DNA of 64,000 nt, taken from positions 367 through 64,366 of the forward strand of contig CAYPFT010000002.1 of the NCBI GenBank assembly GCA_964410165.1, read 5' to 3'. A program made the position numbers and the translations under genes. Below the pieces are notes generated by a model. The model did not search any database. It had not been told where the DNA came from and saw only the letters and a program-made list of their open reading frames with translations. Positions within the stretch are counted from its first letter, which is position 1, and every line of letters starts with the position of its first letter. Positions 14,501 to 44,659 of the stretch are shown here, one piece after another. The DNA is from an uncultured Candidatus Saccharibacteria bacterium (lineage in GTDB: Bacteria; Patescibacteriota; Minisyncoccia; Phycocordibacterales; CAIJYI01).

Positions 14501-14613
14501 CACCCGCCGCACAAGGGCAAGTGCCGATCAAATTCGTCCTCATTCTCGTTTCGCTTCTTCTCATGGGAGCTTTGAGTTACGGCGTCTGGCGGTATTTGGA
14601 TGTGAAGAAGTAA
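11557..14613 (+). CDS. Fusion of a CcdA/DsbD-like thiol-disulfide transporter membrane domain to a multicopper oxidase with a Met/His-rich segment and C-terminal membrane anchor
   Basis: The first ~260 aa have 6-8 transmembrane helices with Cys in LPCTLP and GCPHPATPLL, the CcdA pattern of one Cys in each of two helices. Multicopper oxidase copper ligands are present (HPHG, WYHSHMNE, HPIHFHG, HCHIAEHLHSGMM). There is a Met/His-rich insert (MMKGMGDGMMMP...NMQNMNMGGMMGG) and a terminal hydrophobic helix. Confidence 0.8.
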   Translation: MPPDKSKSILISSIFGLLAVIVFGLLWFFFLAPAVPAGAGWFIFSFAAGLTMIVLPCTLPLAFVIVPLSMGKGVAKGIGTALAFAFGIVITLSIYGIIASLIGKAALGSLGAPLETVKNWVYFIAGIFAYLFALGSIGLLAFKMPTYTGAAPEIIQKKEDYLKAFLMGLFLGNIGIGCPHPATPLLLIEAATSGNVLYGWLLFFVHAVGRVLPLLFLAFMGIMGVNGLSWLVARKEKVERATGWAMVFVGAFILVLGLFSHDWWVNSGQHTLLESITQEETILNVIGEKLNTGNAHNHGLEDGTGLFGLPLWLGNWVLVLLWVIPFFWYLRKEKARIAQIPEANQVPERVAEENTRHMRRKFYIALAIALGAIFIYILPMRFYNQSIGIGAGHDEMKMTVSVGGETFSQDIIGLPEAKPSEVVSLKNGDTYTLSPGAVWKEINGKRVKMLAYNGMIPGPTIKAKQGSEVIIHFVNNLEIKDTLHPHGVRLNNKFDGVAGVTQEPVLPGGSFDYKIKFPDSGIYWYHSHMNEAYTQNLGMYGALLVAPKSGEFSGREEVVFLSDLLMNESGIAPFPKDFTDHAMMGRFGNTMLVNGSTKYRFIAAPGETVRFHFVDSAVARTFRLSILEKWGGEKAQKTIVTQVGSDGGEMERKIEVGEVILSPGERATVDIRFPEKEGAYHLYHESSKQPYLLATFDVKGEVLKAAKEITYEDKPIFSKEELNRYRIAPPDKRIKLSLVADMNAMMKGMGDGMMMPAGAEPAGHDNSDGHHGSAGIVSEAHASTPMPFAMDMSNMQNMNMGGMMGGTPQKIEWEDDMGAMNAMSNSNSVKWEIIDEDNGRANGDINWTFSKGDMVKVRIFNDPKSMHPMQHPIHFHGQRFVVLATNGAPNDNMAWKDTTLVQTGDTVDILVEMSNPGFWMAHCHIAEHLHSGMMFGFVVKDGKVAAGGEEDYKIVMPQERSQLASAYAWAHGDEEDGHEEPAPAAQGQVPIKFVLILVSLLLMGALSYGVWRYLDVKK

Positions 14614-17993: not shown

Positions 17994-20492
17994 ATGACCA
18001 AACTCGTACTTAAGGTAAAAGGCATGCACTGCGCGTCGTGCTCCATCTTGATCGACAAACTGCTCGGAAGTCAGCCGGGGGTGGTGTCAATAAAGACGAG
18101 CTACGGCGCGGAGAAGACGGCGGTTGAGTTTGATGAGTCGAAGATAACTCTTGAGAAAATGGACGAGTTCGTACACAAGCTCGGCTACGACATTATCCGT
18201 CCCGACGAAGAAGGCGCAAGCATTGAAGACCAAGAAAAGAAAGAAGCGCTTATAATCAAACAAGCGAAGCGGCGCGTCATTGCGGCGTTTATTATTGCGG
18301 CGCCTATCATAATTTACTACATGGTTATTCACATGTTTAACGTAACGCATGTGCATGAGCTTTTTGACTTTTTGAATTTGAAACAGCCGGTGGCGGGGGT
18401 CGCATCTGCCGGGTCATACGCGGTGCAGTATATGTTTTGGATGATTGCGAGCGCACTCAAGGCGTTTGTCGGGCTTTTTGTAGACGTAGCGAATCCGCCT
18501 TTCAAAATTGACCTCAATTATATTTACTGGATTCTTTCCACGCCCATACAGTTCGTCATCGGTTGGCCGTTTTACCGCAATGCATTTACCGCTATCCGCG
18601 TCGGCGTGGCGAACATGGATGTACTCGTCGTACTCGGCACTTCCGCCGCGTATTTTTACAGCGCAATCGGTTTTCTTTTTTTCAACATTGACCACCCGTT
18701 TTGGGAAAGTTCCGCCGCGCTTCTCTGCTTCATTCTTCTCGGGCGCTATATTGAAGTACTCGCTCGCGGTCGTGCCTCAAATGCCATTAAGGAACTTTTG
18801 AAACTGGAAGCGAAAGAAGCGCATGTGGTTCGTGATGGGCAGGAAGTTACCGTGCCGATAGATAAAATTCTTCTCGGGGATGTCGTCATTGTAAAGCCGG
18901 GTGAAAAAATACCCGTTGACGGCGTGATTGTTGAAGGAAAATCGCATATTGACGAGAAAGTGGTTACGGGGGAATCGTTTCCGGTAGGAAAGGGTGTCGG
19001 CGAAGAAGTTATCGGCGCGACGGTCAATCAGGAAGGCTTGATAAAATTCCGTGCGACGAAAGTCGGGAAAGACACGCTTTTGTATCAAATCATCAAAATG
19101 GTGGAAGAGGCGCAGGCGACGCGCGCGCCAATTCAAGACTTAGTGGACAAAATCAGTGAGTACTTCGTGCCTGCGGTTGTTTTGCTTTCCATGATGACGT
19201 TCGTCGGGTGGTATTTCTTCACCGGCATTGATTCATTCCGTTCGGCTTTGATGAAAATGATCGCGGTGCTCGTCATCTCCTGTCCGTGCGCCATGGGGCT
19301 TGCGACGCCGACCGCGCTTGTGGTGGGTATCGGCCGCGCCGCGAAGTTCGGCATTATTTTGAAAGGCGGAGAAGCGCTGGAAAAGGCCTATCGCGTTACA
19401 ACTTTCGTTTTCGATAAAACCGGCACGCTTACCATCGGCAAGCCCACCGTCACGGATGTGGTATTTCTTTCCGACTGGCATGACCGCGATAAAATTATTC
19501 ATCTTGCCGCCTCCATTGAACAAGGCTCTGAACATCCTCTTGCCCGCGCGGTGGTGGAAGAAGGGAAGAAACTCGGGCACCTCGGAGAATTGCGCGATTT
19601 TGAAGCCGTAGCCGGAATGGGGATTCATGGATGGACGGGCGCGCATGATGAGATTTATATCGGCAACGAGGCGTATATGGCAAAACTCGGTATTGATATA
19701 GCGGCGCATAAGCCGGCACTTGAAAAACTGCAAGGAGAAGCGAAGACCGCCGTGTTTATGTGTACCGCCAAAACCCCCGTGGCGCTTATCGCGATGGCGG
19801 ATACCTTGAAGCCGTTTGCGCTTGAGGCGATAGCTGAGCTCAAAAAAATGGGGAAAGAGATCGTGATGATTACCGGCGACAATCAAAAGACCGCGGAAGC
19901 AATCGCAAAGCAGGTCGGCATTGACCGCGTGATGGCACAGGTGCTTCCGCAAGATAAAGCAGAACAGGTGAAGAAACTCCAAACAGAAGGAAAGAATGTG
20001 GCGATGGTGGGCGACGGTATCAATGATTCTCCGGCGCTTGCGCAGGCAAATCTCGGCATTGCCGTTGGAAGCGGTACGGACGTTGCCATTGAGACAGGAG
20101 AGATCATCCTTGTGAAAGACGATCTTCGCGACGTAGTTACCGCGATCCAGCTTTCTCAAAGAACGATGCGAAAAATTTGGCAGAATCTTTTTTGGGCATT
20201 CTTCTACAACGTCATCGCCATTCCGGTCGCCGCCGGCGCGCATCTCCTCGTTACCCAGACCACGTTCGGCATTGCGGCAGGATGGACACTCGCCATGAAA
20301 GAGAGCATGGGCTGGTTCGGAAACGTCCTCTTCTCCCTCTCACAAACCACCCTCCGCCCGGAGATTGCCGGATTCGCGATGGCGTTCTCGTCCGTTTCGG
20401 TTGTGGCGAACTCGCTCTTGCTGCGCCGCTACGTCCCCACCATGGAGCGGGAGAGTGTAAGGGAGGTTGAAAGTGCCGACCAAAAAACTTGA
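17994..20492 (+). CDS. copA: Copper-translocating P1B-type ATPase CopA
   Basis: N-terminal heavy-metal-associated domain GMHCASC, transmembrane CPC motif ([12 protein letters not shown]), DKTGTLT phosphorylation site, [10 protein letters not shown] hinge. Confidence 0.9.
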
Positions 20493-28562: not shown

Positions 28563-29267
28563 ATGAACCGGCGAGAATTTTTGTCGCTTTTTGTGGAAAA
28601 TACAAAGAAACGAAGCAGGACATCATCAGGGGTTGGCGAAACGTCAATAAGTCCAATGAAGAAAGGGTTGTTAAAGGCGGGCGAGGACTTGAAGCGGCAA
28701 GTTCACGAGAATACGCTCATGCTTGCCGAAGAAATATGGGGGGTACCATTCGTATATTTTGAAGCTTCTCGCATACGCTCCTTGTTGGAAAATTGGTTTG
28801 ATATCATTCAAAAAGATATTTTCGACAGAGAGGCGTGTTCCCTCGAACGATCTCGGCAGGGGAAACATTCCGTTACCATGCTCCATGGTTTGAGTTGTCG
28901 GTCCAACAACAAATATCGCTTCTGGGAAGTGAACTATGCGTTCCCTGAACACAACCCGCCGCCGGAGTATCTTGAGGTGTGGATGGATGTTTTTTATGCG
29001 GAAATTGTGAAAAAAATGATACAGACTGACGGTACATCGGTAAATTCGGTCGCTAAGTTGTTGGCGTGGGCGGACAGGGAAATGGATTTCATCATTCACC
29101 CATGGAGCGATGGATGCGGACGAATGTCGACCGCTCTCGTCATGTGGCTTGCGCTTCGGGTATCGAAAGTCGGTTTGCCAAAGTTTGGCAAACGAGAGAA
29201 ACATTACAAAACAATAAAAACAACCACGAAGCATACGGAGTATTTTCTTAAATGCCTCAAGTCGTAA
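28563..29267 (+). CDS. Fic/Doc (Fido)-like protein with non-canonical motif
   Basis: HPWSDGCGRMSTALVMW resembles the Fic motif HPFx[DE]GNGRxxR, with H, P, D, G, G and R conserved and N replaced by C. Confidence 0.4.
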   Translation: MNRREFLSLFVENTKKRSRTSSGVGETSISPMKKGLLKAGEDLKRQVHENTLMLAEEIWGVPFVYFEASRIRSLLENWFDIIQKDIFDREACSLERSRQGKHSVTMLHGLSCRSNNKYRFWEVNYAFPEHNPPPEYLEVWMDVFYAEIVKKMIQTDGTSVNSVAKLLAWADREMDFIIHPWSDGCGRMSTALVMWLALRVSKVGLPKFGKREKHYKTIKTTTKHTEYFLKCLKS

Positions 29268-29326
29268 GCGGCTCACGCGCCTTGTCCCCTTGTCGGACAA
29301 GGCGCTTTTTGCAATACTGAAAAGTA

Positions 29327-29944
29327 ATGACCGAAGACAACACAGAAAAAAACGACAGAGAAAAAATTCTTGCGTATATAAAAAAGAAACACGATGGGCA
29401 GATGCGCGCCGAGAATGTTCCGACGTGGCATCATCTCGCCCGGGTGGCTCATATTTTGGAAACCGTTTTGGAAAAACACAAAGAGGGGACGGCGGAGGAA
29501 AGGCAAGCGATAATCCGCGCCGGTTACGGACACGACCTTTTGGAAGATACGAATGCCACGGAGAAAGAGCTTGTCGAAATTTTTGGTACAGATGGGGCGC
29601 GTATTATCCACGGGGACACAAACGAATGGGGCGATGACGATGTGCGTCCGTATGTGGAGAAAATGCGCCATGAGCCGGAGAGTGTCCGCCTCGCAAAACT
29701 TGCCGACCTCTATGATAATGTCAGCAATGTCACCTATTGCCTCTCCGCGCTTGGAGCGGAGTGGGTAACTTCATATTTTCTTCGCGTTGTGACGCCTATG
29801 TATGAAATGGTTATTGATTCACCGTTTACTGTCTACGAAAAGTCCGGAAATGAATTAAAAGCAATGGCTCAAAACGCTTTTTCGCTCCTTCATGACGAAT
29901 TTTCGCGATATGTCTCCTCGTTGCCGAGCGGAATCCCTCGTTGA
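29327..29944 (+). CDS. HD-domain phosphohydrolase
   Basis: H...HD...D metal ligands (WHHLARVAHI...GYGHDLLEDT), spaced like SpoT/YfbR-type HD hydrolases. Confidence 0.55.
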   Translation: MTEDNTEKNDREKILAYIKKKHDGQMRAENVPTWHHLARVAHILETVLEKHKEGTAEERQAIIRAGYGHDLLEDTNATEKELVEIFGTDGARIIHGDTNEWGDDDVRPYVEKMRHEPESVRLAKLADLYDNVSNVTYCLSALGAEWVTSYFLRVVTPMYEMVIDSPFTVYEKSGNELKAMAQNAFSLLHDEFSRYVSSLPSGIPR

Positions 29945-30001
29945 TTTTTGGCATTGCGCATGCTACTCTCCTTGTAGGTTTGAAAATCTAAGGAGAATAC
30001 C

Positions 30002-30670
30002 ATGTTCCAGTCCATTCCGCTTGAAATTTTTCAAGCACGAACCGGCATATCTCGAGACATTATGACGCCGACATGGGCGCAAGCGTCCGAAGTTGTTTCT
30101 CTTCGCGATATTGTTTCCGTTTCTTCCATACAGGTTATGTCCGAAGAGTATTTGAGAAAACTCATTTGCAGTACGACCCTTGAAGGCGATGAGCACTCTC
30201 TCGTGTACGAAAAGTGTCATATTTCTCGCGCGAGAATTGACCCGCATAATATCCTTGTGGGTCAGGCGTTTGTCGAGCGCGCGAAATATCAGAGGATGAT
30301 TGAAAATCTTTCGAGGGTGTTTGAGGGGTTTTGCGTAAATCACGGCTTTGCCAAAAGTATCGCACTTGTTGTTTTGGGGAAGATTGCCGATGGCTCTGTC
30401 GGGATTGCACACTACGTTCCTCCGATTGTGGAACAGCACCATGGCGGACTCTATCTTCTTGATGGCGTTCACCGTAATTTTCTGGTCGGTTCGGTCGGTA
30501 CTACCATTGAAGCGATTATTTTGAAAAATATCCAGATACCCTTTCCGTGCGATGTGCATACATGGTCGTCGCTTCATCCGGTTGACGAGAAACCGCCAAG
30601 AGCCGAACGATTCTATAATCTTCGTCCGGATATTTTCCGTGATCTCAAACGGGTCGGAGTGGATGGATAG
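30002..30670 (+). CDS. Hypothetical protein with a ParB/Srx-like DGxHR motif
   Basis: LYLLDGVHRNF resembles the DGQHR/DGQQR-type motif of the ParB-like nuclease superfamily. The overlapping antisense ORF 29963-30577 is Arg-rich low-complexity and is rejected. Confidence 0.4.
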   Translation: MFQSIPLEIFQARTGISRDIMTPTWAQASEVVSLRDIVSVSSIQVMSEEYLRKLICSTTLEGDEHSLVYEKCHISRARIDPHNILVGQAFVERAKYQRMIENLSRVFEGFCVNHGFAKSIALVVLGKIADGSVGIAHYVPPIVEQHHGGLYLLDGVHRNFLVGSVGTTIEAIILKNIQIPFPCDVHTWSSLHPVDEKPPRAERFYNLRPDIFRDLKRVGVDG

Positions 30671-30699
30671 GCGCGATACATATTTTTGAAAGCCCGCAG

Positions 30700-30745
30700 C
30701 GACCGGGCTTTTTTCTTTTCGGTTTTTGTGGTAAGAAGAGGGGAG
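30700..30745 (+). promoter_or_regulatory. Conserved ~45-bp upstream motif, copy 2
   Basis: GGGCTTTTTTCTTTTCGGTTTTTGTGGTAAGAAGAGGGGAG directly after the terminator hairpin AGCCCGCAGCGACCGGGCT. It precedes the RBS AAGGGAGG and the ATG at 30784. Confidence 0.4.
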
Positions 30746-30783
30746 TTTATTCTTTTACATCGCAACATAAGGGAGGCAGTACT

Positions 30784-31929
30784 ATGATTTTACACTACGA
30801 CCAACTGTTACAGTTTGCATTTCCGCCAAGCGGACCAAGCCTTATTTCCGGGGAAGTTCCTCTGAAGAGAGGGCAGATGCAGTCCGAATCGGTGGACTGC
30901 CGTTTGGGCGATCGAGTATATCGCATGCGTTCATCGGCTCTTCCGCGAAAGAACGAAACAGTCGAGCAGCTGATAAATGATTACTGCATGTACGATTTTT
31001 CTCTTCCTGAAAAAGAAGCGCGGGTTTTGGAGGCCGGGGCGTGCTACATTATTCCGCTCCAAGAAAAAGTTTTGATGTCTCCGGAATATTCGGTTTTGTT
31101 TTCTCCGAAAAGTTCCACGGGAAGATGTTTCGTTTTTGTGAGAGTACTCACGGACAACAACACCTATTACGACTGTATCAAGGGCGGATATTCCGGTAAT
31201 TTTTATCTCGAAGTTTTACCGCTTGCTTTTACCATAAGCGTTCGGTCAGGGGTATCGTTGACGCAGTTTCGGCTGAAAGATCAATTTGAGGATAAATTAA
31301 CGACTGAGCAGATTCGCTTTATTCACCAGATGAAACTTCGGACAGGGGACGGGCTTGTTTTTTCAAAAGAAGAGAAAGCCCTTTCTTTTGATGAGTTTGC
31401 CATCTCAAACAGCCGCCTGTATTTTACCCTCGACCTCGCCCGTTCGATTGTCGGCTTTGAAGCAAAGCAGTCATGCGTCACGGAACTTCATATGGATAAA
31501 ATGGATTATCATGATGCGGAAGATTTCTGGCTTCCCATTACCAGACCGAAGAACGGACAGATTATTCTTGAGCCGGGGAAATTTTACCTGCTCTCTACAA
31601 AGGAGCGGGTAAAAATACCGTCAAATTTGTGCGGCTCCGTCGTGGATTACGATGCGCGCGCCGGAGAGTTCCGGACGCATTATGCCAGTTGGTTCGGCGC
31701 CGGATTCGGCGGAGAGACAGGAATCCCCGTGGTTCTTGAGGTTCGCGGTTCAGACGCGCCGTTCCGTCTCGTGGACGGCCAACCGATATGCGGTATGGAA
31801 TTTGAGCGTCTCTTCGGCACCCCATCGCTTCTGTATGGAAAAGAAAGAAATTCAAACTATGTAATAGGTGTACCGTCTCTTTCCAAGCATTTCAAAAACA
31901 GAGAGAGTGTTTGGGGAGAAATGATTTAG
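30784..31929 (+). CDS. dCTP deaminase-like protein, long two-domain form (dUTPase-fold)
   Basis: 381 aa, a plausible two-lobed dUTPase/Dcd-like fold with a VDCRLGD Dcd-like N-terminal motif. Sits beside ThyX-like, kinase and dUTPase genes. Confidence 0.45.
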   Translation: MILHYDQLLQFAFPPSGPSLISGEVPLKRGQMQSESVDCRLGDRVYRMRSSALPRKNETVEQLINDYCMYDFSLPEKEARVLEAGACYIIPLQEKVLMSPEYSVLFSPKSSTGRCFVFVRVLTDNNTYYDCIKGGYSGNFYLEVLPLAFTISVRSGVSLTQFRLKDQFEDKLTTEQIRFIHQMKLRTGDGLVFSKEEKALSFDEFAISNSRLYFTLDLARSIVGFEAKQSCVTELHMDKMDYHDAEDFWLPITRPKNGQIILEPGKFYLLSTKERVKIPSNLCGSVVDYDARAGEFRTHYASWFGAGFGGETGIPVVLEVRGSDAPFRLVDGQPICGMEFERLFGTPSLLYGKERNSNYVIGVPSLSKHFKNRESVWGEMI

Positions 31930-31990
31930 AAATATTATTGATGCAATTTGTTTTTGCAAAAAAAGGCGCCGTAATGGCGCCTTTTTCCTA

Positions 31991-33400
31991 TCATACTTTT
32001 TTAACAATATCCTGCTCGCCGCGCTTGATGTCGAAGCGTCCGATTTCTTTGGCGGTGTGGACTTGAAGTCCATATTCGCCGAAATTGTCCGTTAAGAATC
32101 CGGCTATTCGATGGGCTTGTTTTTGGAGCGTCGGGTGGACGAACGGCGTTGCGCGAAGTTCGGCAAGGTAGACAAAAGCGGGTAAGTCTCCGGTGATACG
32201 GTTCGAGACACGGTATCCCATGGGGATATAGTATTGAGCGTCCAGAGGGGAGATATCGCTTAGGAACGAGAGCAAATCCGTTGTTTTGAGGAGTGCCACC
32301 GCCTTCTGCCGGATGTCTTCGGGAAGTTCATTGAGATACCACGGCTCGAATCCGTGTACGGTCGTGAGAAGCGGCATGCGCTGTACGACAGCCCTCTGTC
32401 GCTGAATATCTCGGAACGAACCGAAGTCAAGGAGGAAACGGAACCGAAGCGAAGATGCTTGCGCCAAAAATTTCGGGAGTTCGGTTTTTGGCGGTCTTGC
32501 GACAAGCACCTGACGGTGTTTATTCAGTTCGTCTTCATCTGTAAAGAGAACAGTTCCTTCGAATTCCGGACATTCGCCGTCAAATAAATAGTAATATTCA
32601 TGCATCCACATCTCGTTATAATTTTCCGTAGCCTCGTATCTTTTGTGTGAGAACGAGCTTGGGAAAGCTTCTCTGAGTGCCGATTCCATAGCTTCCGCGA
32701 CTGTCCGGACCTCTTCAAGCGGATGGTGGCGCAATATCGCGATTTTGTCAGCCGTTTGGCGGAGGTTGGCGTGCCACGAAAGATTGGTCATAGCGCCACC
32801 GGGAAGAAAGCTGCGTAAAATGTCAAAGGCTCTCGCCGCGATGGCCTTTTCATATTTTCCAGAATCCTCCTGCTCGGGTCTTGGAAACCGGAACCGCAAG
32901 TCTTTTTTGAGTGGCTCCAAAGATTCAAGATAAAACATCCGCAAACATTCATGAAGGTTTTTCGCCCATGAGAAACCGAGGATGTTAATAAACAGTTGTT
33001 CGGCGAAATCCACGTAGCGTGTCGAGACTTCTTGCCCCGAATACAAAAGCCAGTCTTGAATCGCTTTCGCTACGAGCATCGAAACGCCTTCAATAAAAAT
33101 GGTGACCGAACCGCAGTCGCCGATGGATTTGTGTCCGTAGCCGACGTAAAATTGCGCCATGAATTTTTCCGCGCCTTTTTTCGCAATCTCAACCAAGTGT
33201 TTGAGCACGCTTCCGGGAGAGCGCGAATAGAGTGCCTGAAGCATCGCTTCGGCTTCGGGGCCGATGAGGGCACCGGTGTTTAAGACGAGAACCATTCCGC
33301 CGTTTGGAAGCGGGCGGATGGCGTGTTTGAGTTTTTCAAATGCGCGATATTTTTGCCATTGACTGAGCAAAGCCGAGGCTTTTTGGAAATAGGAAATCAT
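31991..33400 (-). CDS. ThyX-like (flavin-dependent thymidylate synthase fold) protein, divergent and extended
   Basis: GHKSIGDCGSVTIFIEGVSMLVAKAIQDWLLYSGQEVSTRY aligns to the ThyX core GHETPFEH..FTFHVK..RQWFRHRIASYNELSGRY, but RHR is replaced by DWL. The second motif TNLSWHANLRQTADKIAILR is kept. 469 aa versus ~220-250 for canonical ThyX. Confidence 0.5.
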   Translation of the reverse strand: MISYFQKASALLSQWQKYRAFEKLKHAIRPLPNGGMVLVLNTGALIGPEAEAMLQALYSRSPGSVLKHLVEIAKKGAEKFMAQFYVGYGHKSIGDCGSVTIFIEGVSMLVAKAIQDWLLYSGQEVSTRYVDFAEQLFINILGFSWAKNLHECLRMFYLESLEPLKKDLRFRFPRPEQEDSGKYEKAIAARAFDILRSFLPGGAMTNLSWHANLRQTADKIAILRHHPLEEVRTVAEAMESALREAFPSSFSHKRYEATENYNEMWMHEYYYLFDGECPEFEGTVLFTDEDELNKHRQVLVARPPKTELPKFLAQASSLRFRFLLDFGSFRDIQRQRAVVQRMPLLTTVHGFEPWYLNELPEDIRQKAVALLKTTDLLSFLSDISPLDAQYYIPMGYRVSNRITGDLPAFVYLAELRATPFVHPTLQKQAHRIAGFLTDNFGEYGLQVHTAKEIGRFDIKRGEQDIVKKV

Positions 33401-33535
33401 AGAGTGCCTGCCCTTTTTTGTGAAAGAAAAATGTATCCATCTTCCACACTAAATGAATCGGGCGATAAGTCAACTTCCGTTCGCGCGCAGTTTGTGATTA
33501 AATGAAAGAAGATAATTTTTTGGAGACAATATACC

Positions 33536-34126
33536 ATGGCACACAAAGGCAAATTTATCGCGCTTTATGGCATTAACAATATCGGCAAATCAACGCAAAT
33601 AAAGAAATTGCAGCAAAAGTTTCATTATTTATCCATTGGCTGTTATTTTGTTAAATACGGGGTGTATGACCTCATCCCGTCGGGTCCGGAACTCAATGCG
33701 TATTTGCGTAAAGGAAATCCGGAAAATCTCTCTCCGCGCGAATTTCAGCTCATTCATGTCATTAATCGAGCTCAGTATGAGCCTCGCATTGGAGCTATTC
33801 TTTTCGGTGGGACTCATGTAATCGCCGAAGATTATACCGGAACAGGCATCGCTTGGGGTATGGGGGCCGGGGTCAACAAGGAATTCCTTTTGCGCATGAA
33901 CAGTCATTTGCGCAAGGAAGACCTCGCTATTCTTATGGACGGCGAACGATTCTCAGAGAGTATCGAAGTTGGACATGCGCATGAAGAAAAAGAGGAGTTA
34001 GTAAAAAAGGTAAGACAAATCCATCTTGAACTCGCGAAAGAGTTTGGCTGGCATGTTGTGAACGCGAATCAGTCGGACAAGAAAGTGCATAATGACATTT
34101 GGCGTATCGTCGAGCCGATTTTATGA
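33536..34126 (+). CDS. P-loop (deoxy)nucleoside monophosphate kinase, thymidylate kinase-like
   Basis: P-loop GINNIGKST near the N-terminus and a Tmk-like size (196 aa). Adjacent to dut and the ThyX-like gene. Confidence 0.5.
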   Translation: MAHKGKFIALYGINNIGKSTQIKKLQQKFHYLSIGCYFVKYGVYDLIPSGPELNAYLRKGNPENLSPREFQLIHVINRAQYEPRIGAILFGGTHVIAEDYTGTGIAWGMGAGVNKEFLLRMNSHLRKEDLAILMDGERFSESIEVGHAHEEKEELVKKVRQIHLELAKEFGWHVVNANQSDKKVHNDIWRIVEPIL

Positions 34127-34172
34127 AAACAATCTCCGTCCGCAAGGCGGAGATTTTTGCTATACTGTTTTT

Positions 34173-34601
34173 ATGACACTCATCCTCAAAATCAAACGCC
34201 TTACGGAAGACGCGAAAATTCCAAACTGCGCCCATCCGGGGGATGCGGGGCTTGATTTGTATGCGACGGAGGATGTAACGCTTGTGCCGAACGAACGCAA
34301 GGCTGTTCCGACTGGAATCGCGATGGAAATTCCCGATGGTTATGCGGGTCTTATGTGGGACAAAAGCGGGCTTTCCATAAAACACGGACTAAAAACTCTC
34401 GGCGGGGTAATAGACTCCGGTTACCGCGGAGAAGTGCTTGTCGGCATTATAAATTTGTCCGGCGAGGAATACACGATACGAAAAGGCGAAAAAATCGCGC
34501 AGATGATTATTCAGAAAAAAGAAACCATTGAGGTTGAAGAAGCGTCGGAATTAAGCGAAACCGCTCGGGGAGAAGGGGGGTTTGGGAGTACGGGGAAATG
34601 A
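34173..34601 (+). CDS. dut: dUTP diphosphatase
   Basis: dUTPase motifs AGLDLYA, RSGL-like KSGLSIKHG, GVIDSGYRGEV, GERIAQ-like GEKIAQMI and a C-terminal Gly-rich tail. An extended -10 TGCTATACT lies upstream. Confidence 0.85.
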   Translation: MTLILKIKRLTEDAKIPNCAHPGDAGLDLYATEDVTLVPNERKAVPTGIAMEIPDGYAGLMWDKSGLSIKHGLKTLGGVIDSGYRGEVLVGIINLSGEEYTIRKGEKIAQMIIQKKETIEVEEASELSETARGEGGFGSTGK

Positions 34602-36712: not shown

Positions 36713-38245
36713 TTATTTCTTTCCCGATTTCGACGGACATTCGGCGATAAGTTCAACCTTGTCGTCTTCTTTGACCGCCTCAATCCGCACCGGACACTGC
36801 CAGAGCTGGAAGAGGTGTTTGAGCACTTCCGCCGCGCTTTCTTTGTGGAGCGGAACGCGATTGCGTTCCGTATGCCGCAAAGTAAGCGTGCGGTCGTTGC
36901 GCAAATCAACGTTCCATATCTGAATATCAGGTTCGATGGCGCCGATGTCGTACTGACCGGCAAGCGCTCGGCGTACATCGCGGTACCCGTCTTCGTTGTG
37001 GATTGCATTCACAATATAGTTTGCCGTGTCGAGTCCCGGGTAGTCTATTATATGCCACAGCCGCATGTCGCGCATGACTTTCGGAGAAAGATACTGTGAG
37101 ATAAAGCTCTCGTCTTTGAAGTTTTCCATAGTGAACTTCATTGTGGCAAGCCAGTCCGTACCCGCAATATCAGGGAACCACTTTTTGTCCTCTTCCGTCG
37201 GATTTTGACAGATGCGCGGAATGTCGCGAAACATATCGAAGCCGAGAGCGTAAGGATTTATTCCGGAATAATACGGCTTATCCCACGTCGGCTGAAGAAT
37301 CACATTTGTATGAGATACCAAAAATTCCAGCATAAAGCCGTCGTTCACGTATCCTTCGTCGTAGAGATCGTACATGAGCGTGTAATGCCAGAACGTCGCC
37401 CACCCTTCGTTCATGACTTTCGTCTGCCGTTGGGGATAGAAGTACTGCGCAATCTTGCGAACGATGCGCACAATCTCTCTTTGCCATGGTTCCAGAAACG
37501 GAGCGTTCTTTTCGATGAAATACAGGATATTTTCCTGCGGTTCGGTCGGGAAACGCTCCCGCCACTTTTTTTCCGCCTCCTTTTTGATCTTTGGCACCGT
37601 TTTGTCCCAGAGGTCGTTTACCTGCGACTGGAGATATTCCGCGCGTTCTTTCTGCCGCGCCCTTTCTTTTTCGAGCGAAATCGGCGCGGGGCGCTTATAG
37701 CGATCAACACCATAATTGCTTAATGCATTGCATGAGTCCAAAAAGAACTCCACTTCCTCTCGCCCATATTTCTCTTCGCACTCCGCGATATAGCGTTTTG
37801 CGAAGAGCATGTAATCCACGATAGCATCGGGGCTCGTCCACTGACGGAACAGATAATTTCCCTTAAAGAAGGAATTATGTCCGTAGCAGGCATGGGCGGT
37901 GACGAGTTCCTGCATCGCGGAAGAGTTCTCTTCCATAAGGTAGGCAATGCAAGGATTCGAGTTGATAACGAGCTCGTAGGCAAGACTCACATCGCCTCTC
38001 ATGTACGCGCGCCTCGTATTTTCCGCTTCTTTTCCGAGAGACCAGTGATAAAACGATACCGGCAGTCCGATGGATGAATACCGATCTATCATTTGCTCCG
38101 CGGTGATAATCTCAATCTGATTCGGAAACGTCTTGAGGCCGTACTTTTCGCATGCGATCCGCCCAATCACTTCGTTTGCTTTTTGAATATCCTCAATGGT
38201 CCATGCGGAAGATTCGGTAATTAACCGTGATATGTTGTGTGACAT
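36713..38245 (-). CDS. SpoVR/YcgB-family protein
   Basis: 510 aa. Last gene of a prkA-yeaH-spoVR arrangement, and full-length for the SpoVR family. Confidence 0.75.
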   Translation of the reverse strand: MSHNISRLITESSAWTIEDIQKANEVIGRIACEKYGLKTFPNQIEIITAEQMIDRYSSIGLPVSFYHWSLGKEAENTRRAYMRGDVSLAYELVINSNPCIAYLMEENSSAMQELVTAHACYGHNSFFKGNYLFRQWTSPDAIVDYMLFAKRYIAECEEKYGREEVEFFLDSCNALSNYGVDRYKRPAPISLEKERARQKERAEYLQSQVNDLWDKTVPKIKKEAEKKWRERFPTEPQENILYFIEKNAPFLEPWQREIVRIVRKIAQYFYPQRQTKVMNEGWATFWHYTLMYDLYDEGYVNDGFMLEFLVSHTNVILQPTWDKPYYSGINPYALGFDMFRDIPRICQNPTEEDKKWFPDIAGTDWLATMKFTMENFKDESFISQYLSPKVMRDMRLWHIIDYPGLDTANYIVNAIHNEDGYRDVRRALAGQYDIGAIEPDIQIWNVDLRNDRTLTLRHTERNRVPLHKESAAEVLKHLFQLWQCPVRIEAVKEDDKVELIAECPSKSGKK

Positions 38246-39534
38246 TACGCATTCTCCTTTTTTTTGAAGAGTTCATGAAACACCGGATAGATGTCCTTTT
38301 GTTCTCGGATGAATTTCATCGCGAATCGATCTTTAAATACGCTCTCTTCGGCAATCCGCAGATAGTTCGCCCAGAGTTCATCTTGCTTCTCTTTTTCAAT
38401 CTGAACGTAAGCGAAGTAGCGGAGCACAGAAAGAATTTCATTTACCAACATATCTTCGCAGATGTTGGAATCAAGCGACCAGTTCTCTCCATCGGAGGCT
38501 TGCGCGACATATCTGTTCCAAGAAGAGTCGCTGTATCTTTCGTCAATAATCTCTTTCATAAGGCGGAGCCCCGTGGAGACGACCGTACCGCCCGTTTCCG
38601 TGGACTCAAAAAATTCTTTTTCGACCACTTCTTCGGCGATAGTGTGATGCTTGATGAACACCACATCGGTCCGTTCGTAATTTCGTGTAAGGAACAGATA
38701 TAAAAGCAAGAAGAATCGTTTGGCAATATCCTTCCTGTTTTTGTCCATGGAGATCGAGACATCCATAATACAAAACATCACTGCTTGCGCGGTCGGCTCC
38801 GGCACTTTTGCAAATTGCCTGAAACGAAGGTCCGAAGTGTCTATGAACGGAATGCCGCGAAGTTTTTGTTTGAGCAGGGTAATTTCTTGCGCAACGGCAA
38901 TAACCCGCTCCCTTGCTTTTTCGTCCGGATCAGGCAATGCCAAAAGCAGAGCCATCTCCCCCTCAAGTTTGCAAAGGAGTTCCTCCTTATCTTTTTTCCC
39001 GAATACGATGCGCCTTGCAAGCGATTGACGAAAGGAGCGGACAAGGTCGAGGTTCGTCGGATTTCCCGCGGTGGTTATGCCCGCGCGTTTCCATTTGTAC
39101 TCGTCTATGCCTGAAAAGAGCTCGGTCTTTATCATATTCGGAAGTTCGCAGTCCTCAAAATAGATTTCCAAAAATTCTTTGCGGGTGAGGTGAAAAACAA
39201 AATCATCTTCGCCCTCGCCGTCCGGACTGCCTTTCTTTCCGCCCCCGCTTCCTCCTTTCGGGCGGGGGATTTTGTCTCCTGGAATAAAGCGGTCATTGCC
39301 GGGGTGCACATATTCCCGGTTGCCGCCTGTTCCGTGCCGGAATCGCGGTTCTTGAATGCCCTTTTTCGGGATGGTTATATCTTCTCCGTCTTTATGCGAA
39401 TCGGTAATGCTGCCGATCCCGGCTTTTTTCTGCACCGCTTCTTTTATCCACGGTTTCATTCGTTCAATGAATCTTCCACGATTGACGTGGCTGCCTCCTC
39501 CTTGACCTCTTCTGTCTACAATAACGTCGCTCAT
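38245..39534 (-). CDS. YeaH/YhbH-family (DUF444) protein
   Basis: N-terminal Gly/Arg-rich region (RRGQGGGSHVNRGRF ... GGSGGGKKGSPDGEGEDD) followed by a vWA-like C-terminal domain. Lies between prkA and spoVR. Confidence 0.75.
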   Translation of the reverse strand: MSDVIVDRRGQGGGSHVNRGRFIERMKPWIKEAVQKKAGIGSITDSHKDGEDITIPKKGIQEPRFRHGTGGNREYVHPGNDRFIPGDKIPRPKGGSGGGKKGSPDGEGEDDFVFHLTRKEFLEIYFEDCELPNMIKTELFSGIDEYKWKRAGITTAGNPTNLDLVRSFRQSLARRIVFGKKDKEELLCKLEGEMALLLALPDPDEKARERVIAVAQEITLLKQKLRGIPFIDTSDLRFRQFAKVPEPTAQAVMFCIMDVSISMDKNRKDIAKRFFLLLYLFLTRNYERTDVVFIKHHTIAEEVVEKEFFESTETGGTVVSTGLRLMKEIIDERYSDSSWNRYVAQASDGENWSLDSNICEDMLVNEILSVLRYFAYVQIEKEKQDELWANYLRIAEESVFKDRFAMKFIREQKDIYPVFHELFKKKENA

Positions 39535-39622
39535 GGCATTTCTCCCATATTACTCTGTCTTTGAAAAAAATAGGGGCGGCGTCGAAACTTCGAACCACCG
39601 CCCCTAAGCCTTTGACCCCTTC

Positions 39623-41548
39623 TTAGGAACTCTTTCTTACCCGCAGGTACCATTCCGAAAGCAGGCGCACCTGCTTGGGTGTGTAACCTTTCGCTCCCAT
39701 CCGATTCACGAAATCTTCGTGTTTTTTTTGGTCGTCTTTCGACGCTTTCGAGCTGAAAGAAATGACTGGCAAGAGCTCCTCGGTATTCGCGAACATCTTT
39801 TTCTCAATCACCGCCCGCAATTTTTCGTAGCTCGTCCATACCGGATTTTTCCCGCTGTTTTTCGATCTTGCACGAAGTACGAAGTTTACCACTTCGTTTC
39901 GGAAATCCTTCGGGTTTGAAATGCCCGCCGGTTTTTCAATCTTTTCAAGCTCCGTATTGAGCGCCGTTCGGTTGAAACTTTCTCCGGTGTCAGCGTCTCG
40001 GTATTCTTGATCTTGGATCCAGTAGTCCGCATACGTGACATAACGATCGAAAATGTTTTGCCCGTATTCCGAATACGATTCCAGATACGCCGTTTGGATT
40101 TCTTTCCCGATGAACTCGATATAGCGCGGAACGAGATACTCCTTGATGAAACGGAGATAGCGTTCCTGCATTTCCGACGGGAACTGTTCCTGAGCGATTT
40201 GCTGCTCCAATACATAAACCAGATGCACCGGATTCGCCGCCACTTCAGTGTGGTCGAAGTTGAACACTTTGGAGAGGATCTTGAACGCGAAGCGCGTCGA
40301 GATTCCTTCCATGCCCTCGTCCACGCCGGCGAAATCTTTATATTCCTGATAGGATTTGGCTTTCGGGTCGGTGTCTTTCAAGTTCTCGCCGTCATAGGTG
40401 CGCATCTTTGAATAGATGCTCGAATTCTGCGGTTCTTTGAGGCGGGACAAGACGACGAATTGCGCGAGCATTTGGAGCGTCCCCGGAGCGCACGGCGCTT
40501 CGGAGAGCGAGCTGTATCTGAGCAGTTTTTCGTAGATCTTCACTTCTTCCGAAACACGGAGACAATACGGAACTTTCACGACATACACGCGGTCGAGGAA
40601 CGCTTCGTTGTTCCGGTTTCCTTTGAAGGTTTTCCATTCCGATTCGTTCGAGTGGGCGAGAATAATGCCCTCGAACGGAATGGCGGAAAGCCCTTCCGTG
40701 CCTTTGTAGTTTTGTTCTTGGGACGCCGTCAGGAGCGGATGAAGCACTTTGATCGGCGCTTTGAACATTTCCACGAATTCCATGATGCCGCGGTTGCCGA
40801 GGCATAATCCTCCGGAGAAGCTGTACGCGTCCGGATCGTCCTGCGAATAGTGCTCGAGTTTTCTGATATCCACTTTGCCGACGAGAGAGGAAATGTCCTG
40901 GTTGTTCTCATCACCCGGCTCGGTTTTGGAAACGGCGCGCTGGTCGAGCTGCGAAGGGTGGACTTTTACGACGGTAAATTTTGTAATATCTCCCCCGTAT
41001 TCGTGAAGGCGTTTTACCGCCCACGGAGAGGGGATAATGCCGATATATCGGCGCGGAATGTTGTATTCTTGCTCAAGAATTTCCGCATCTTCCGCCGAAA
41101 AAAGTCCGAGAGGCGATTCGTTCACAGGGGATCCTTTGATCATATAGAACGGCTGTTTCTCCATGAGCGATTTGAGCTTTTCCGCAAGCGACGATTTGCC
41201 GCCGCCGACGGGACCCAAAAGGTAGAGGATCTGCTTCTTCTCTTCAAGTCCTTGCATTGCGTGGAGAAAGAACGCGACGATTTTTTGAATGGTTTCTTCC
41301 ATGCCGTAGAATTCCGCGAAAGAAGAATATACGTCAATGACCTTGTTTGCATGGATGCGCGAGAGGCGCGGGTCAAGCCGGGTATCAATGGCGTCCGGCG
41401 TCCCGATAGCAAGCAATTCACGCTCTTGCGGTGTGGCGTAAGCGCTCGGGTCATTTCGGCAAATTTCAAGATACTCTTCCAGAGAATATTCTTGCGCGCG
41501 GGTTTGGTCGTAACGCTCCGTGAGGCGGGTAAATAAACTGGTGTTCAT
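39623..41548 (-). CDS. prkA: PrkA/YeaG-family AAA+ serine protein kinase
   Basis: 641 aa with Walker A LLGPVGGGKSSL and PrkA-type N- and C-terminal domains. First gene of the three-gene operon. Confidence 0.85.
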   Translation of the reverse strand: MNTSLFTRLTERYDQTRAQEYSLEEYLEICRNDPSAYATPQERELLAIGTPDAIDTRLDPRLSRIHANKVIDVYSSFAEFYGMEETIQKIVAFFLHAMQGLEEKKQILYLLGPVGGGKSSLAEKLKSLMEKQPFYMIKGSPVNESPLGLFSAEDAEILEQEYNIPRRYIGIIPSPWAVKRLHEYGGDITKFTVVKVHPSQLDQRAVSKTEPGDENNQDISSLVGKVDIRKLEHYSQDDPDAYSFSGGLCLGNRGIMEFVEMFKAPIKVLHPLLTASQEQNYKGTEGLSAIPFEGIILAHSNESEWKTFKGNRNNEAFLDRVYVVKVPYCLRVSEEVKIYEKLLRYSSLSEAPCAPGTLQMLAQFVVLSRLKEPQNSSIYSKMRTYDGENLKDTDPKAKSYQEYKDFAGVDEGMEGISTRFAFKILSKVFNFDHTEVAANPVHLVYVLEQQIAQEQFPSEMQERYLRFIKEYLVPRYIEFIGKEIQTAYLESYSEYGQNIFDRYVTYADYWIQDQEYRDADTGESFNRTALNTELEKIEKPAGISNPKDFRNEVVNFVLRARSKNSGKNPVWTSYEKLRAVIEKKMFANTEELLPVISFSSKASKDDQKKHEDFVNRMGAKGYTPKQVRLLSEWYLRVRKSS

Positions 41549-41823: not shown

Positions 41824-43158
41824 ATGGGTAAAATTATCGTTCCGGAAAACAAACTTATTCTGCTCGACCATACTCGCGCCGGTCCGATGGCGGAGAGATT
41901 TTACGAATTTGCCAAGACGCGCTTCGTCGGACAGCCGCGCGTTGTTCGGTGGCTCGCTCAAATGTCAGAATCTATATTTCAAGGTTTTTATCCCGCAAGG
42001 GGTCCGTTGGGAAGCGTACTTCTGGTCGGACCTTCCGGTGCGGGAAAAACGCTTGCCGCGGAACTTCTCGCGTGGTTTCTTTTCGGCGACCCGGAAGGAT
42101 TTTCCCGGATCGACGGACAGGAGATGGCGTTGCGAGAAAATATCGCGCGTGTGATCGGCGCATCGCCCGGGTATGTCGGGTATGATGATCCGCCGATGAT
42201 TACCCAAAAAAGCCTCGATGAACCCGCATATTTGTGCATACTCGAAAACGCGCTTAACAATGCCACTGAAGGAGTTCGTCGGGAGTACCACAATATTCAA
42301 GAAGAACGGCGCGGACTTTTGGCGCACATTACCGGGCTTGGAAAGACAAAATCCGACCAGGAAGAATTGGCGCTTGCTGTGCAAAAAATCAAATCACTCA
42401 ACCATCGGACGAAAGCGCTTGGCATTCCCGAATATGACCGAAGGAAATATACATATATTTCCATACTTCTGCTCGACGAGATTGAAAGAGCACATTCCGC
42501 TTTTCATAATCTGTTATATCGGATACTCGACGAAGGAAAACTGCCGATCGTGTCAAAGAACCAAAATATGGGAAGCGGTTTTATTGACTTCAGGAGAACC
42601 ATTATTATTGCAACCAGCAATCTTGGCGAAGAAGAACTGAAAAATCTTTTTAAGAGTTCAAGCGGCCGTTCACTCGGGTATAGTTTTATGAGGCAGACGT
42701 ATACCAGCGATGAGCTTGATCAAGCAACTTATCGGATTTGCAACAAAGCGATAGAAAGCTTTTTTCCGATGCCGCTCCTGAATCGTTTCGGAGATAAGAT
42801 TGCCGCGAGGATACATTCTCGGGAAGAACATCTTCAAGTTCTTGATATTGAGCTGAACAAGATTCGGGATTGGCTGTTTGATCCGGAGGGATGTAATTTT
42901 CCGATTGTAATTCGGGTTGAAGACTCGGTCAAAGCATATTTGGCGGACGAAATGTCGGAGAGCCTCGAAAAAGGAGTTCGTTTTTTGCAACAAAAGCTGA
43001 AGACACATCTCGTTGATAGAATTATATCACTCAAGGCGACAGGACAGGTTTGCGCGGGAGACATACTCATCGTGTCCACCGACCCGATTTCGAAAGAGTT
43101 TGTTTTTCACAAAGAACATAATCCCACCGCCGCGGAAAAGATTATAAAAACCAGCTGA
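41824..43158 (+). CDS. Orphan Hsp100/Clp D2-type AAA+ ATPase (single AAA module) with an ~80-aa insertion between Walker A and B
   Basis: FVGQPRVV...GSVLLVGPSGAGKT (Walker A), SPGYVGYDDPP (Clp hallmark), ILLLDEIERAH (Walker B), TSNLG (sensor 1), C-terminal small domain with GVRFLQQ. No N-domain and no D1. Confidence 0.7.
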   Translation: MGKIIVPENKLILLDHTRAGPMAERFYEFAKTRFVGQPRVVRWLAQMSESIFQGFYPARGPLGSVLLVGPSGAGKTLAAELLAWFLFGDPEGFSRIDGQEMALRENIARVIGASPGYVGYDDPPMITQKSLDEPAYLCILENALNNATEGVRREYHNIQEERRGLLAHITGLGKTKSDQEELALAVQKIKSLNHRTKALGIPEYDRRKYTYISILLLDEIERAHSAFHNLLYRILDEGKLPIVSKNQNMGSGFIDFRRTIIIATSNLGEEELKNLFKSSSGRSLGYSFMRQTYTSDELDQATYRICNKAIESFFPMPLLNRFGDKIAARIHSREEHLQVLDIELNKIRDWLFDPEGCNFPIVIRVEDSVKAYLADEMSESLEKGVRFLQQKLKTHLVDRIISLKATGQVCAGDILIVSTDPISKEFVFHKEHNPTAAEKIIKTS

Positions 43159-43202: not shown

Positions 43203-43306
43203 TTGTCGCAAGGATTGTTTTTTTGCCCTATCAGGAGTACTGTTTAGGGCAGGAAAGACAAATTAGTCCATTGAAACAATTTTTCTTAAAAATACAGGAG
43301 GGGAGC

Positions 43307-44659
43307 ATGGATAACCGCAACACAAATTTTGTTCGTCTTGATCATCTGAAGCGAGGACAAACAGCGGAGGCGTTTATGGAATTTGCCGGCACAAAAGTAA
43401 TCGGACAATCGCACATTATTAAAACTATCGGTCAGACGATTGAACAAGAGCTTGCCGGATTCAGCAATCCCAAAAAGCCGATCGGCTCTTTCTTTATTGC
43501 CGGTCCGTCCGGCGTCGGCAAGACATCCATCATTAAAGCGCTTGCGGAGTTCTTATTTGAAGACGAAAAGGCAATGACCCGTCTTGAGGGACAGGAATTT
43601 TCGGAGCCGCATTCGGTAGCGAACCTGAAAGGATCGCCGGCGGGATATGTCGGATTCGATGAACCGCCGAGAATTACTCAAGAAGGACTCGATAAATACG
43701 GGTTCAATGCGATCCTTGATGATTTTTACTCGCGCTTGTTTCCGGGAGAGGAAGAATTCTTTCAAGAGAAAGAGGCAATGATCCGAACGCTTGTTTCGGA
43801 GATAAATTCATTGACTCAAAGGGATGCTCAAACGGCGAGCAAAAGAGAATCCTGCATGGAGAGCATAAAGGCGCTACAGAGAGAACTTGCCGCAAGAGGG
43901 TATCCTCTTTATGATATTACGGGTTCTCGTTCCAAGTATATCTCCGTTTTCCTTATAGATGAAGTTGAACGGGCGGACAAGGCGCTTTGGAATCTTCTCT
44001 ATACCCCTCTTGATGAAGCGTATCTCCCCATTAAGGGGTATAAAAGATGGAACGGAAGTGTCGTTGACAAAATACGATTTAACAGCACTTTTTTCTTTGC
44101 GACCTCAAATGTCGGCGATGATGTTATCCGCGAACTCTTGAACGTCCAAAGCGGCAAAAGTACGGGTTTTAAGTTTCATCATTCGTCCGTTTCAAAAAAT
44201 GTCGCGCAGGAAGTTTACTCGTCCTGCAAAAAGGAAGTGCGCAGGCATTTTCAGTCCAGTTTCATCGGCCGATTTGACCATTTTTTCGTTGCACAGCCAT
44301 TGTTTCGCCTTGAAATCCGGCAGGTTGTGGACTTGAAAATTTCAGAATTAAACAAGCGGTTGGCGAATAAATTGAATTTCCGGCTTTCTCTTGATGTTGA
44401 TGAAAAGGCGCGCGAGTTTATTGTTGATGAATCTGCCGATGATCCGACTATCGGCGCCCGGTTGGTGGAACAAAAGATTAAGAGGCGGTTGACGGATTCG
44501 CTTGTTTCGCTTACGGCAAGCAAACAAATAACAGACGGCGACCGTATTTTCGTTCGTCTGGAAACGCTTCTTGACCGTCCGGTTTTGACCTTTTACAGAG
44601 AAGAATATGCGGCAAAACCGCTTTTGGTACAAAAAGATTTAGCCGGGGGCAGACCATGA
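43307..44659 (+). CDS. Orphan Hsp100/Clp D2-type AAA+ ATPase, paralog 2, with ~100-aa insertion
   Basis: VIGQSHII...GSFFIAGPSGVGKTS, SPAGYVGFDEPP, VFLIDEVERAD, TSNVG. Same architecture as the upstream paralog. The ~40-bp leader/RBS is duplicated (TCCATTGAAA...AAATACAGGAGGGGAGCATGG). Confidence 0.7.
   Translation: MDNRNTNFVRLDHLKRGQTAEAFMEFAGTKVIGQSHIIKTIGQTIEQELAGFSNPKKPIGSFFIAGPSGVGKTSIIKALAEFLFEDEKAMTRLEGQEFSEPHSVANLKGSPAGYVGFDEPPRITQEGLDKYGFNAILDDFYSRLFPGEEEFFQEKEAMIRTLVSEINSLTQRDAQTASKRESCMESIKALQRELAARGYPLYDITGSRSKYISVFLIDEVERADKALWNLLYTPLDEAYLPIKGYKRWNGSVVDKIRFNSTFFFATSNVGDDVIRELLNVQSGKSTGFKFHHSSVSKNVAQEVYSSCKKEVRRHFQSSFIGRFDHFFVAQPLFRLEIRQVVDLKISELNKRLANKLNFRLSLDVDEKAREFIVDESADDPTIGARLVEQKIKRRLTDSLVSLTASKQITDGDRIFVRLETLLDRPVLTFYREEYAAKPLLVQKDLAGGRP

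Follow-up and report, generated by a model that had tools for sequence, protein, structure and literature searches.

The flavin-dependent thymidylate synthase ThyX is an antibacterial drug target whose active site is built across subunits, and it does not need dihydrofolate reductase (DHFR) for its own cycle. Canonical ThyX proteins such as T. maritima TM0449, M. tuberculosis Rv2754c and PBCV-1 A674R are homotetramers that carry a single ThyX domain per chain. The chlamydial ThyX CT632 reportedly is an active thymidylate synthase and is said to span ~530 residues, which would make it roughly double-length, like the fusion protein described here. That protein is encoded in a window of 64,000 nucleotides, the whole stretch of DNA that we analyzed, from contig CAYPFT010000002.1 of an uncultured Candidatus Saccharibacteria bacterium. 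It has 469 residues, almost certainly arranged as two ThyX domains in one chain, and lies in a compact cluster of genes for deoxynucleotide metabolism. A ThyX domain likewise duplicated within one protein was noted in Chloroflexi "and a few other species" and called uncharacterized (Valas and Bourne 2009, PMC3224940). This single sentence, which offers no motif analysis, is the only precedent we found in the literature on fused, tandem or pseudo-dimeric ThyX, on ThyX in Patescibacteria and on CT632, and the searchable literature yielded no later characterization of duplicated ThyX.

The initial annotation of this locus, made from the DNA letters alone, described the 469-residue protein as a divergent ThyX that lacks the RHR motif and carries extensions of ~120 residues at the N-terminus and ~150 residues at the C-terminus. 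Assignment to the ThyX fold, on the strand opposite to that of its neighbors, was borne out by Pfam Thy1 (PF02511), which matches the chain with 62.7 bits (5e-17; gathering threshold (GA) 24.8) within residues 65-248 only. An alignment of 24 homologues revealed a second conserved block, LDFGSFRDIQR[H/Q]RAVxQRMPLL, inside the supposed C-terminal extension. When the C-terminal halves of homologues were isolated and searched, 14 of 20 matched Thy1 unaided, the best at 1.3e-5. AF2 models were obtained for the full-length protein (pLDDT 82, pTM 0.82) and for residues 255-469 alone (pLDDT 85.5), and both were compared with the PDB using Foldseek. Each of the 50 matches listed for the full-length protein is either a ThyX or the homologous PolB. 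The C-half model matches 156 chains at E<=1e-3, and the best 50 of these are again all ThyX or PolB, with TM scores of 0.5-0.6 over ~190-210 columns.

The models also show where the two domains correspond. The order of strands and helices occurs twice along the full-length model, and R334-Q335-R336 directly follows helix 326-333 as D116-W117-L118 directly follows helix 108-115. Thermotoga maritima ThyX aligned to both the N-half (~1e-4) and the C-half (2e-4) in the expected register when compared by hhalign, and the residue numbers of this query fit those in PDB mutant names. Searches of the PDB by sequence were less informative: the full-length sequence found no match, the family profile gave marginal matches to the N-half only, and the profile of the C-half failed to retrieve any ThyX. 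Together, the homologue matches and the fold search leave very little doubt that residues 255-469 form a second complete ThyX domain. The C-terminal "extension" is really ~215 residues long with a full ThyX fold, and the N-terminal extension shrinks to ~35 residues, since the chain has the N-terminal strands and helix of canonical ThyX.

The RHR motif seemed to be missing because this second domain had been taken for an extension. In the N-domain, the segment QDWxLYSGQExSTRY aligns over VRHRHFSFSQLSQRF of the solved Corynebacterium and M. tuberculosis enzymes, which places D116-W117-L118 opposite RHR and leaves the Ser-loop intact. We examined conservation in 133 diverse sequences that came from searching the representatives of 50%-identity clusters. 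Within the N-domain, S126 and R128 are present in all 133 sequences, E124 in 130, H90 in 129, Y129 in 128, R196 in 125 and R214 in 108. The RHR-equivalent site reads D-x-x, with Asp in 110 of 133, and no RHR occurs there in the ~350 of 389 family sequences where the flanking motif could be placed. R224, which corresponds to R174 of T. maritima ThyX, is Arg in just 37 of 133. The C-domain shows the opposite pattern: R330, D331, R334, R336, R416, H422 and R460 are each invariant (133/133), and the loop that follows RQR has no conserved Ser or Arg, the Ser-loop having been lost. Position 335 is His in 117 representatives, Gln in 15 and Asn in one, so that the second-domain motif is R-H-R in ~88% of the family and R-Q-R in the window protein. 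Of the 120 nearest homologues, 36 likewise have Gln here, among them the 14 closest, and this Gln is presumably a tolerated, clade-specific replacement of the motif His. The RHRx7S motif is therefore complete in neither domain by itself and is complete only across both. The earlier description holds for the RHR site of the first domain and fails for the chain as a whole, in which a better alignment places the motif elsewhere, an outcome that the initial annotation had itself named as refuting it. To judge by these alignments, degeneration of the two ThyX copies has been complementary.

In the PBCV-1 enzyme, monomer A contributes Gln75 and the strictly conserved Arg182 to the uracil pocket, and monomer B contributes Ser88/Gln89. 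The C-domain of the fusion thus retains the residues of "monomer A", and the N-domain those of "monomer B". We propose that a ThyX domain was duplicated in tandem within one chain and that complementary loss followed. The N-domain would supply one monomer's share of the site, namely H90, the His on the flavin side, together with S126, R128 and Y129 of the Ser-loop, its RHR and R174-equivalent having gone. The C-domain would supply the partner's share, comprising R330, R334-Q/H-R336 and the uracil-binding R416, its Ser-loop having gone. Together, the C-domain and N-domain would make each complete active site. From this split between monomer sets we infer a dimer of fusions, and we modestly favor a half-of-sites model in which a pair of chains would assemble into a pseudo-tetramer that has two complete sites, not four.

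Alternatively, inter-domain sites of either kind could be active, giving four per pseudo-tetramer, or the second kind could bind a regulatory nucleotide or NADPH. Selection on the second surface is suggested by residues that are well conserved though non-canonical, among them D116 (110/133), K112 (128/133) and, in the C-domain, P343, Q389 and Y390; moreover, ThyX lacks a domain dedicated to NADPH binding (PMC3498832). This conservation may be structural, however, and the known phosphate and uracil ligands are gone from that surface, where both RHR arginines, the R174-equivalent (37/133) and the C-domain loop Ser and Arg have been lost. We consider a second functional site improbable and retain the model with two complete sites. 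The fusion resembles canonical ThyX in the fold of both halves, the Ser-loop SxQExSTRY, the R-H/Q-R motif, the uracil-binding Arg and the pathway context. It differs in having two domains per chain and a split RHRx7S, in falling below the TIGR02170 cutoff and, in this model, in that only half of its sites could be complete.

The family to which this protein belongs is large. We found more than 4446 homologues, many of them named FAD-dependent thymidylate synthase and from Patescibacteria, and a scan with two strict peptide patterns picked out 404 GTDB species genomes. Record titles of the best 80 of these 404 are apparently patescibacterial, with some bearing another or no taxon name. When 1.84 billion cluster representatives were searched with a profile, 2661 matched, 730 of them at E<=1e-30. 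The best 150 matches are mostly full-length proteins of ~420-500 residues; the others include fragments and longer fusions. This architecture and the division of the motifs are shared by the cultured Asticcacaulis benevestitus and Arenicella sp. Full-length homologues with 32-34% identity over 88-90% of the query are encoded by the jumbo Vibrio phages BONAISHI (MH595538.1, 260770-262074) and vB_VmeM-Yong, and Microcystis phage LMM01 has a full-length two-domain ThyX homologue (BFVD A0A7D4, 491 residues, TM 0.59). The phage family entry for these homologues is phrog_36506. The gene is thus a further member of a large family that is already annotated and biochemically uncharacterized.

This distribution also bears on whether the gene might be a relic of ThyX, decaying or without function, in a cell that lives by salvage of thymidine or dTMP, an idea that draws on the first domain being without a canonical RHR and on the organism probably being a reduced-genome Patescibacterium. 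The open reading frame (ORF) and its companion genes are intact, however, and the family retains ~60% identity across hundreds of patescibacterial species, together with dozens of invariant positions that include every split catalytic residue. This degree of conservation indicates strong constraint, and the pattern effectively refutes the relic.

We then asked which reactions the neighboring genes would support. The initial annotation had recognized a thymidylate-synthesis cluster of six ORFs, and our ORF check confirmed all of their coordinates and strands. The 381-residue protein is, as proposed, a dCTP-deaminase-like enzyme: it matches Pfam DCD_N (7e-42) and DCD_C (4e-43), reaches 283.9 bits with PRK07559 (cutoff 283) and aligns end to end, over residues 21-371, with the long-form dCTP deaminase of Agrobacterium (PDB 2r9q; 6e-57). 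Within it the dCTP-deaminase/dUTPase fold, that of an oligomeric enzyme, is duplicated in tandem. The cluster therefore has two enzymes in which subunits of an oligomer have been fused into one chain. The 196-residue P-loop protein that had been called a dNMP kinase is Tmk-like, with 49.6 bits to Pfam Thymidylate_kin (PF02223; 4.8e-13; GA 27) and 49.2 bits to TIGR00041, below the equivalog cutoff of 83.25. The dUTPase family call was sound (3e-36; 158 bits to TIGR00576, cutoff 102.55). Its listed start was less so: that ORF overlaps Tmk by 35 nt, whereas the match to the 82% identical dUTPase (Dut) of a related locus, L087, covers 142 residues and begins at 34173. The homologue alignment and a terminator-like hairpin just upstream both point to M28 as the most likely true start.

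These enzymes would form a continuous route. The long-form dCTP deaminase would convert dCTP to dUTP and the dUTPase would convert dUTP to dUMP; the tandem ThyX would then make dTMP by methylating dUMP, presumably using methylene-tetrahydrofolate and reduced FAD by analogy with canonical ThyX, and the Tmk-family kinase would phosphorylate dTMP to dTDP. Of the two possibilities first offered for this locus, a non-canonical dTMP route was correct in centering on ThyX and incorrect in that the route is the ordinary one, from dCTP to dTDP. We regard it as very probable that the two-domain ThyX is a thymidylate synthase, and as probable that the whole locus is best explained as an ordinary de novo dTTP branch with a tandem-fused, complementary ThyX.

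To place the cluster in a wider context, we took 80 other genomes that carry a ThyX of this type and searched by tblastn within 6 kb of it. A Tmk of the type found in L087 is present in at least 41 of the 80, dCMP deaminase in 28, Dut in 26, ArgRS in 24, dNMP kinase in 19 and dCTP deaminase (DCD) in 12; Tmk of the window type is beside ThyX in just three. Because Tmk, dCMP deaminase, Dut and DCD recur near this ThyX, the cluster is more than a chance assembly. In addition, a metagenomic protein of 625 residues (P0438) has a dCMP/cytidine deaminase domain fused N-terminally to a two-domain ThyX.

The closest comparison is provided by L087, a locus from a close relative in which the flanks are conserved and the shared proteins are 89% (HD), 82% (Dut), 71% (ParB-CE) and 68% (Fic-like) identical to those of the window. 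Where the window (30784-34601) has DCD, ThyX and Tmk, L087 (5743-9349) has dCMP deaminase, dNMP kinase, ThyA, DHFR and Tmk, the two Tmk proteins being 29% identical. The two loci therefore differ by an in-situ swap of ThyA plus DHFR for tandem ThyX, and of dCMP deaminase for dCTP deaminase. A thymidylate synthase would be expected to be exchangeable with ThyA plus DHFR at a fixed locus, and the swap supports this role for the tandem ThyX.

The second possibility first offered was that the protein modifies pyrimidines or DNA bases in some other way. We framed this as a neofunctionalized paralogue that makes another modified pyrimidine, by 5-hydroxymethyl-dUMP formation, UMP methylation or synthesis of a hypermodification precursor, with the real synthase encoded elsewhere. 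The protein has diverged strongly from canonical ThyX, its TIGR02170 score is below the cutoff and its motif His has changed to Gln; locus L063 holds ThyA in addition to this ThyX; and the full-length homologues in jumbo Vibrio phages and LMM01 belong to viruses of a kind that often modify bases. PolB (PDB 4p5a), the UMP/dUMP methylase of polyoxin biosynthesis, shares the ThyX fold and is among the fold matches. PolB, however, is a single-domain protein in an antibiotic gene cluster, whereas the fusion sits with dUMP supply and Tmk and is replaced by ThyA and DHFR in the relative. Moreover, this ThyX is set among dUMP-supplying enzymes and Tmk in many genomes, a dCMP deaminase fusion exists, every dUMP-contacting residue is kept, though split over the domains, and the gene is strongly conserved in 404 species genomes. 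No DNA-modification genes were seen near the ThyX locus, and glycosyl-, amino- and other hypermodification transferases are likewise absent nearby. The modification role thus gained no support, and we think it somewhat less probable even than a second functional site.

Several observations weigh against a tandem, complementary ThyX that serves as the cell's thymidylate synthase. The protein scores only 28.3 bits with the TIGR02170 thyX equivalog (cutoff 87.9), its own C-half has no reportable Pfam match, and the motif His is Gln. The N-half and C-half align to one another by hhalign at E 0.025 with 133 sequences and not significantly with 24; because this alignment is weak, the duplication rests on the C-half Pfam matches and the fold search. 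The oligomeric state and number of sites are inferred. ThyA lies beside this ThyX in one of the 80 loci (L063) and DHFR in six (L003, L005, L009, L016, L020 and L030), so exclusivity is not absolute. Our tblastn search for a second synthase, using ThyA, DHFR and canonical ThyX as queries, was confined to the 64-kb window of this genome and found none there, with low sensitivity for ThyX. Finally, we found no biochemical data on any family member in the literature.

Upstream of the DCD gene are three further genes, two of which had been included in the cluster. The HD-domain phosphohydrolase call was upheld by Pfam HD (1.8e-5; 25.4 bits, GA 22) and HD_4 (4e-5), and the protein has an HDxxED-type motif, GHDLLEDT. 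Its PDB matches include Lmo0812 (4yf1; 1e-6) and HDDC3/MESH1 (6e-4), with 3nr1 and 3nqw both at <1e-3, and by sequence it resembles the small alarmone hydrolases, or Mesh1. The 222-residue neighbor, with motifs LLDGVHRNF and AHYVPPIVE, had been called a ParB/Srx-like DGxHR protein. It has no Pfam match of its own at E<=1 and no PDB relative by sequence search. Among its homologues, however, 26 of 32 match PF24392 "ParB CE domain" (best 2.3e-7), and D154-G-x-H157-R158 is invariant; therefore the assignment stands at the level of the family. It has 53 homologues, of which the named ones are all from Patescibacteria, and the term "ParB-CE" occurs in the literature in unrelated uses only. Terminator-like hairpins delimit the HD and ParB-CE genes as a unit. 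Just upstream is a 234-residue protein that itself has no Pfam match. Four of six members of its family match Pfam Fic (PF02661), and the family profile matches PDB FICD at 8e-12. The motif is invariantly IHP[WF]xDGCGR in this family, so that Cys stands where the Fic consensus HPFx[D/E]GN[G/K]R has Asn, and the invariant Glu49 might be an inhibitory-helix Glu.

ParB-CE, as a nuclease-superfamily neighbor, had been said to fit a role of ThyX in nucleotide or DNA base modification. It does not support a DNA-modification role, and we rejected any functional link between the two, because the ParB-CE gene was found at none of the 80 other ThyX loci; it has partners of its own and also adjoins ThyA-based clusters. 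Across 68 ParB-CE loci, a gene for an NT5C 5'(3')-deoxyribonucleotidase directly adjoins it, usually divergently, in at least 15 that do not have the trio of Fic-like, HD and ParB-CE genes (L083, L085, L090, L110, L111, L114, L116, L122-L124, L130, L132, L135, L138 and L144). The trio, with a Mesh1-type HD protein, occurs at seven loci (the window at 28563-30670, L087, L089/L117, L104, L106 and L129) in varying order and orientation. Three of the seven lie inside or beside dTMP genes, which include ThyA in two cases. A known anti-phage defense system was rejected, PADLOC having given only weak matches in the Fic region. The three genes may make up a module with a role connected to the nucleotide pool.

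Two broader ideas concern the two halves of the locus. In the first, the tandem ThyX would be an obligate single-chain heterodimer whose dead half-sites may be re-used; in the second, the trio would be an undescribed module that senses or regulates dNTP pools in candidate-phyla-radiation bacteria. We hold these ideas to be doubtful, though less so than a second functional site. The dead half-sites may be re-used, for example, for binding of a reductant or a regulatory nucleotide; if so, they would give the enzyme kinetics or regulation unlike those of canonical ThyX.

Table 1. Features of the thymidylate-synthesis locus and adjoining genes, numbered by position in the window.
Feature	Position	Strand	Basis
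234-aa divergent Fic-domain protein (IHPWSDGCGR), outside the region first annotated	28563..29267	+	Family profile against PDB
Terminator-like hairpin, Fic-like/HD gap	29277..29305	+	11-bp stem with 8 GC pairs, then T run
205-aa HD hydrolase, small-alarmone-hydrolase / Mesh1 type	29327..29944	+	Pfam HD, HD_4, PDB matches
222-aa ParB/Srx-like protein, Pfam ParB-CE family	30002..30670	+	Motifs, homologue PF24392 matches
Terminator-like hairpin 3' of ParB-CE	30688..30712	+	9-bp stem, then T run
381-aa long-form dCTP deaminase, tandem DCD_N + DCD_C	30784..31929	+	PRK07559, Pfam, 2r9q
469-aa tandem ThyX-ThyX fusion, probable flavin-dependent thymidylate synthase	31991..33400	-	Thy1, AF2, Foldseek, homologues
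C-terminal ThyX domain, residues 255-469	31994..32638	-	Pfam Thy1 on homologue C-halves, AF2, Foldseek
R416, equivalent to uracil-binding Arg (T. maritima R174, PBCV-1 R182)	32153..32155	-	hhalign to T. maritima ThyX, conservation 133/133
R334-Q335-R336, relocated RHR (H to Q variant)	32393..32401	-	Helix register, conservation
N-terminal ThyX domain, residues ~36-254	32639..33295	-	Alignment to Corynebacterium (Cg) and M. tuberculosis (Mtb) ThyX, hhalign, 133 representatives
S121-GQEVSTR-Y129 Ser-loop, equivalent to T. maritima S83-Y91	33014..33040	-	Alignment, conservation, translation
D116-W117-L118, N-domain RHR-equivalent	33047..33055	-	Translation, family alignment
196-aa divergent thymidylate-kinase-family P-loop kinase	33536..34126	+	Pfam Thymidylate_kin
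Terminator-like hairpin, Tmk/Dut gap	34131..34155	+	10-bp stem, then T run
dUTPase, 142 aa from probable start M28 of listed ORF 34092-34601	34173..34601	+	TIGR00576, L087 Dut

Other genes in the window deserve brief mention. A 1018-residue protein (11557-14613, + strand) has two multicopper-oxidase domains in addition to a DsbD-type transmembrane domain, and its gene lies upstream of one for a heavy-metal P-type ATPase (17994-20492). A three-gene operon encoding PrkA, DUF444 (YeaH) and SpoVR (36713-41548, - strand) gave very strong Pfam matches, in what is apparently a Patescibacteria genome. Two adjoining genes (41824-43158 and 43223-44659, + strand) each encode a partial AAA_2 domain of the ClpB/Cdc48 type, to which the second adds ClpB_D2-small; they may represent a split or paired Clp-like ATPase. 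A class-I aminoacyl-tRNA synthetase of 1192 residues (44865-48443, + strand) has a histidine-phosphatase domain inserted within it (His_Phos_1, 1e-30, residues 529-691). Its matches to tRNA-synt_1 (1e-138), Anticodon_1 and DUF5915 suggest that it is IleRS-like.

A very large natural family thus appears to have fixed the cross-subunit arrangement of ThyX in one chain, with complementary loss of motifs. If this is true, the family provides a natural test of the share of residues that each subunit contributes, and of whether half of the sites suffice. Annotation procedures that look for RHRx7S within one domain would wrongly mark these enzymes as defective, and metabolic reconstructions of candidate-phyla-radiation genomes should count tandem ThyX as a thymidylate synthase. 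Close relatives that carry either tandem ThyX or ThyA plus DHFR at a fixed locus clearly illustrate non-orthologous replacement.

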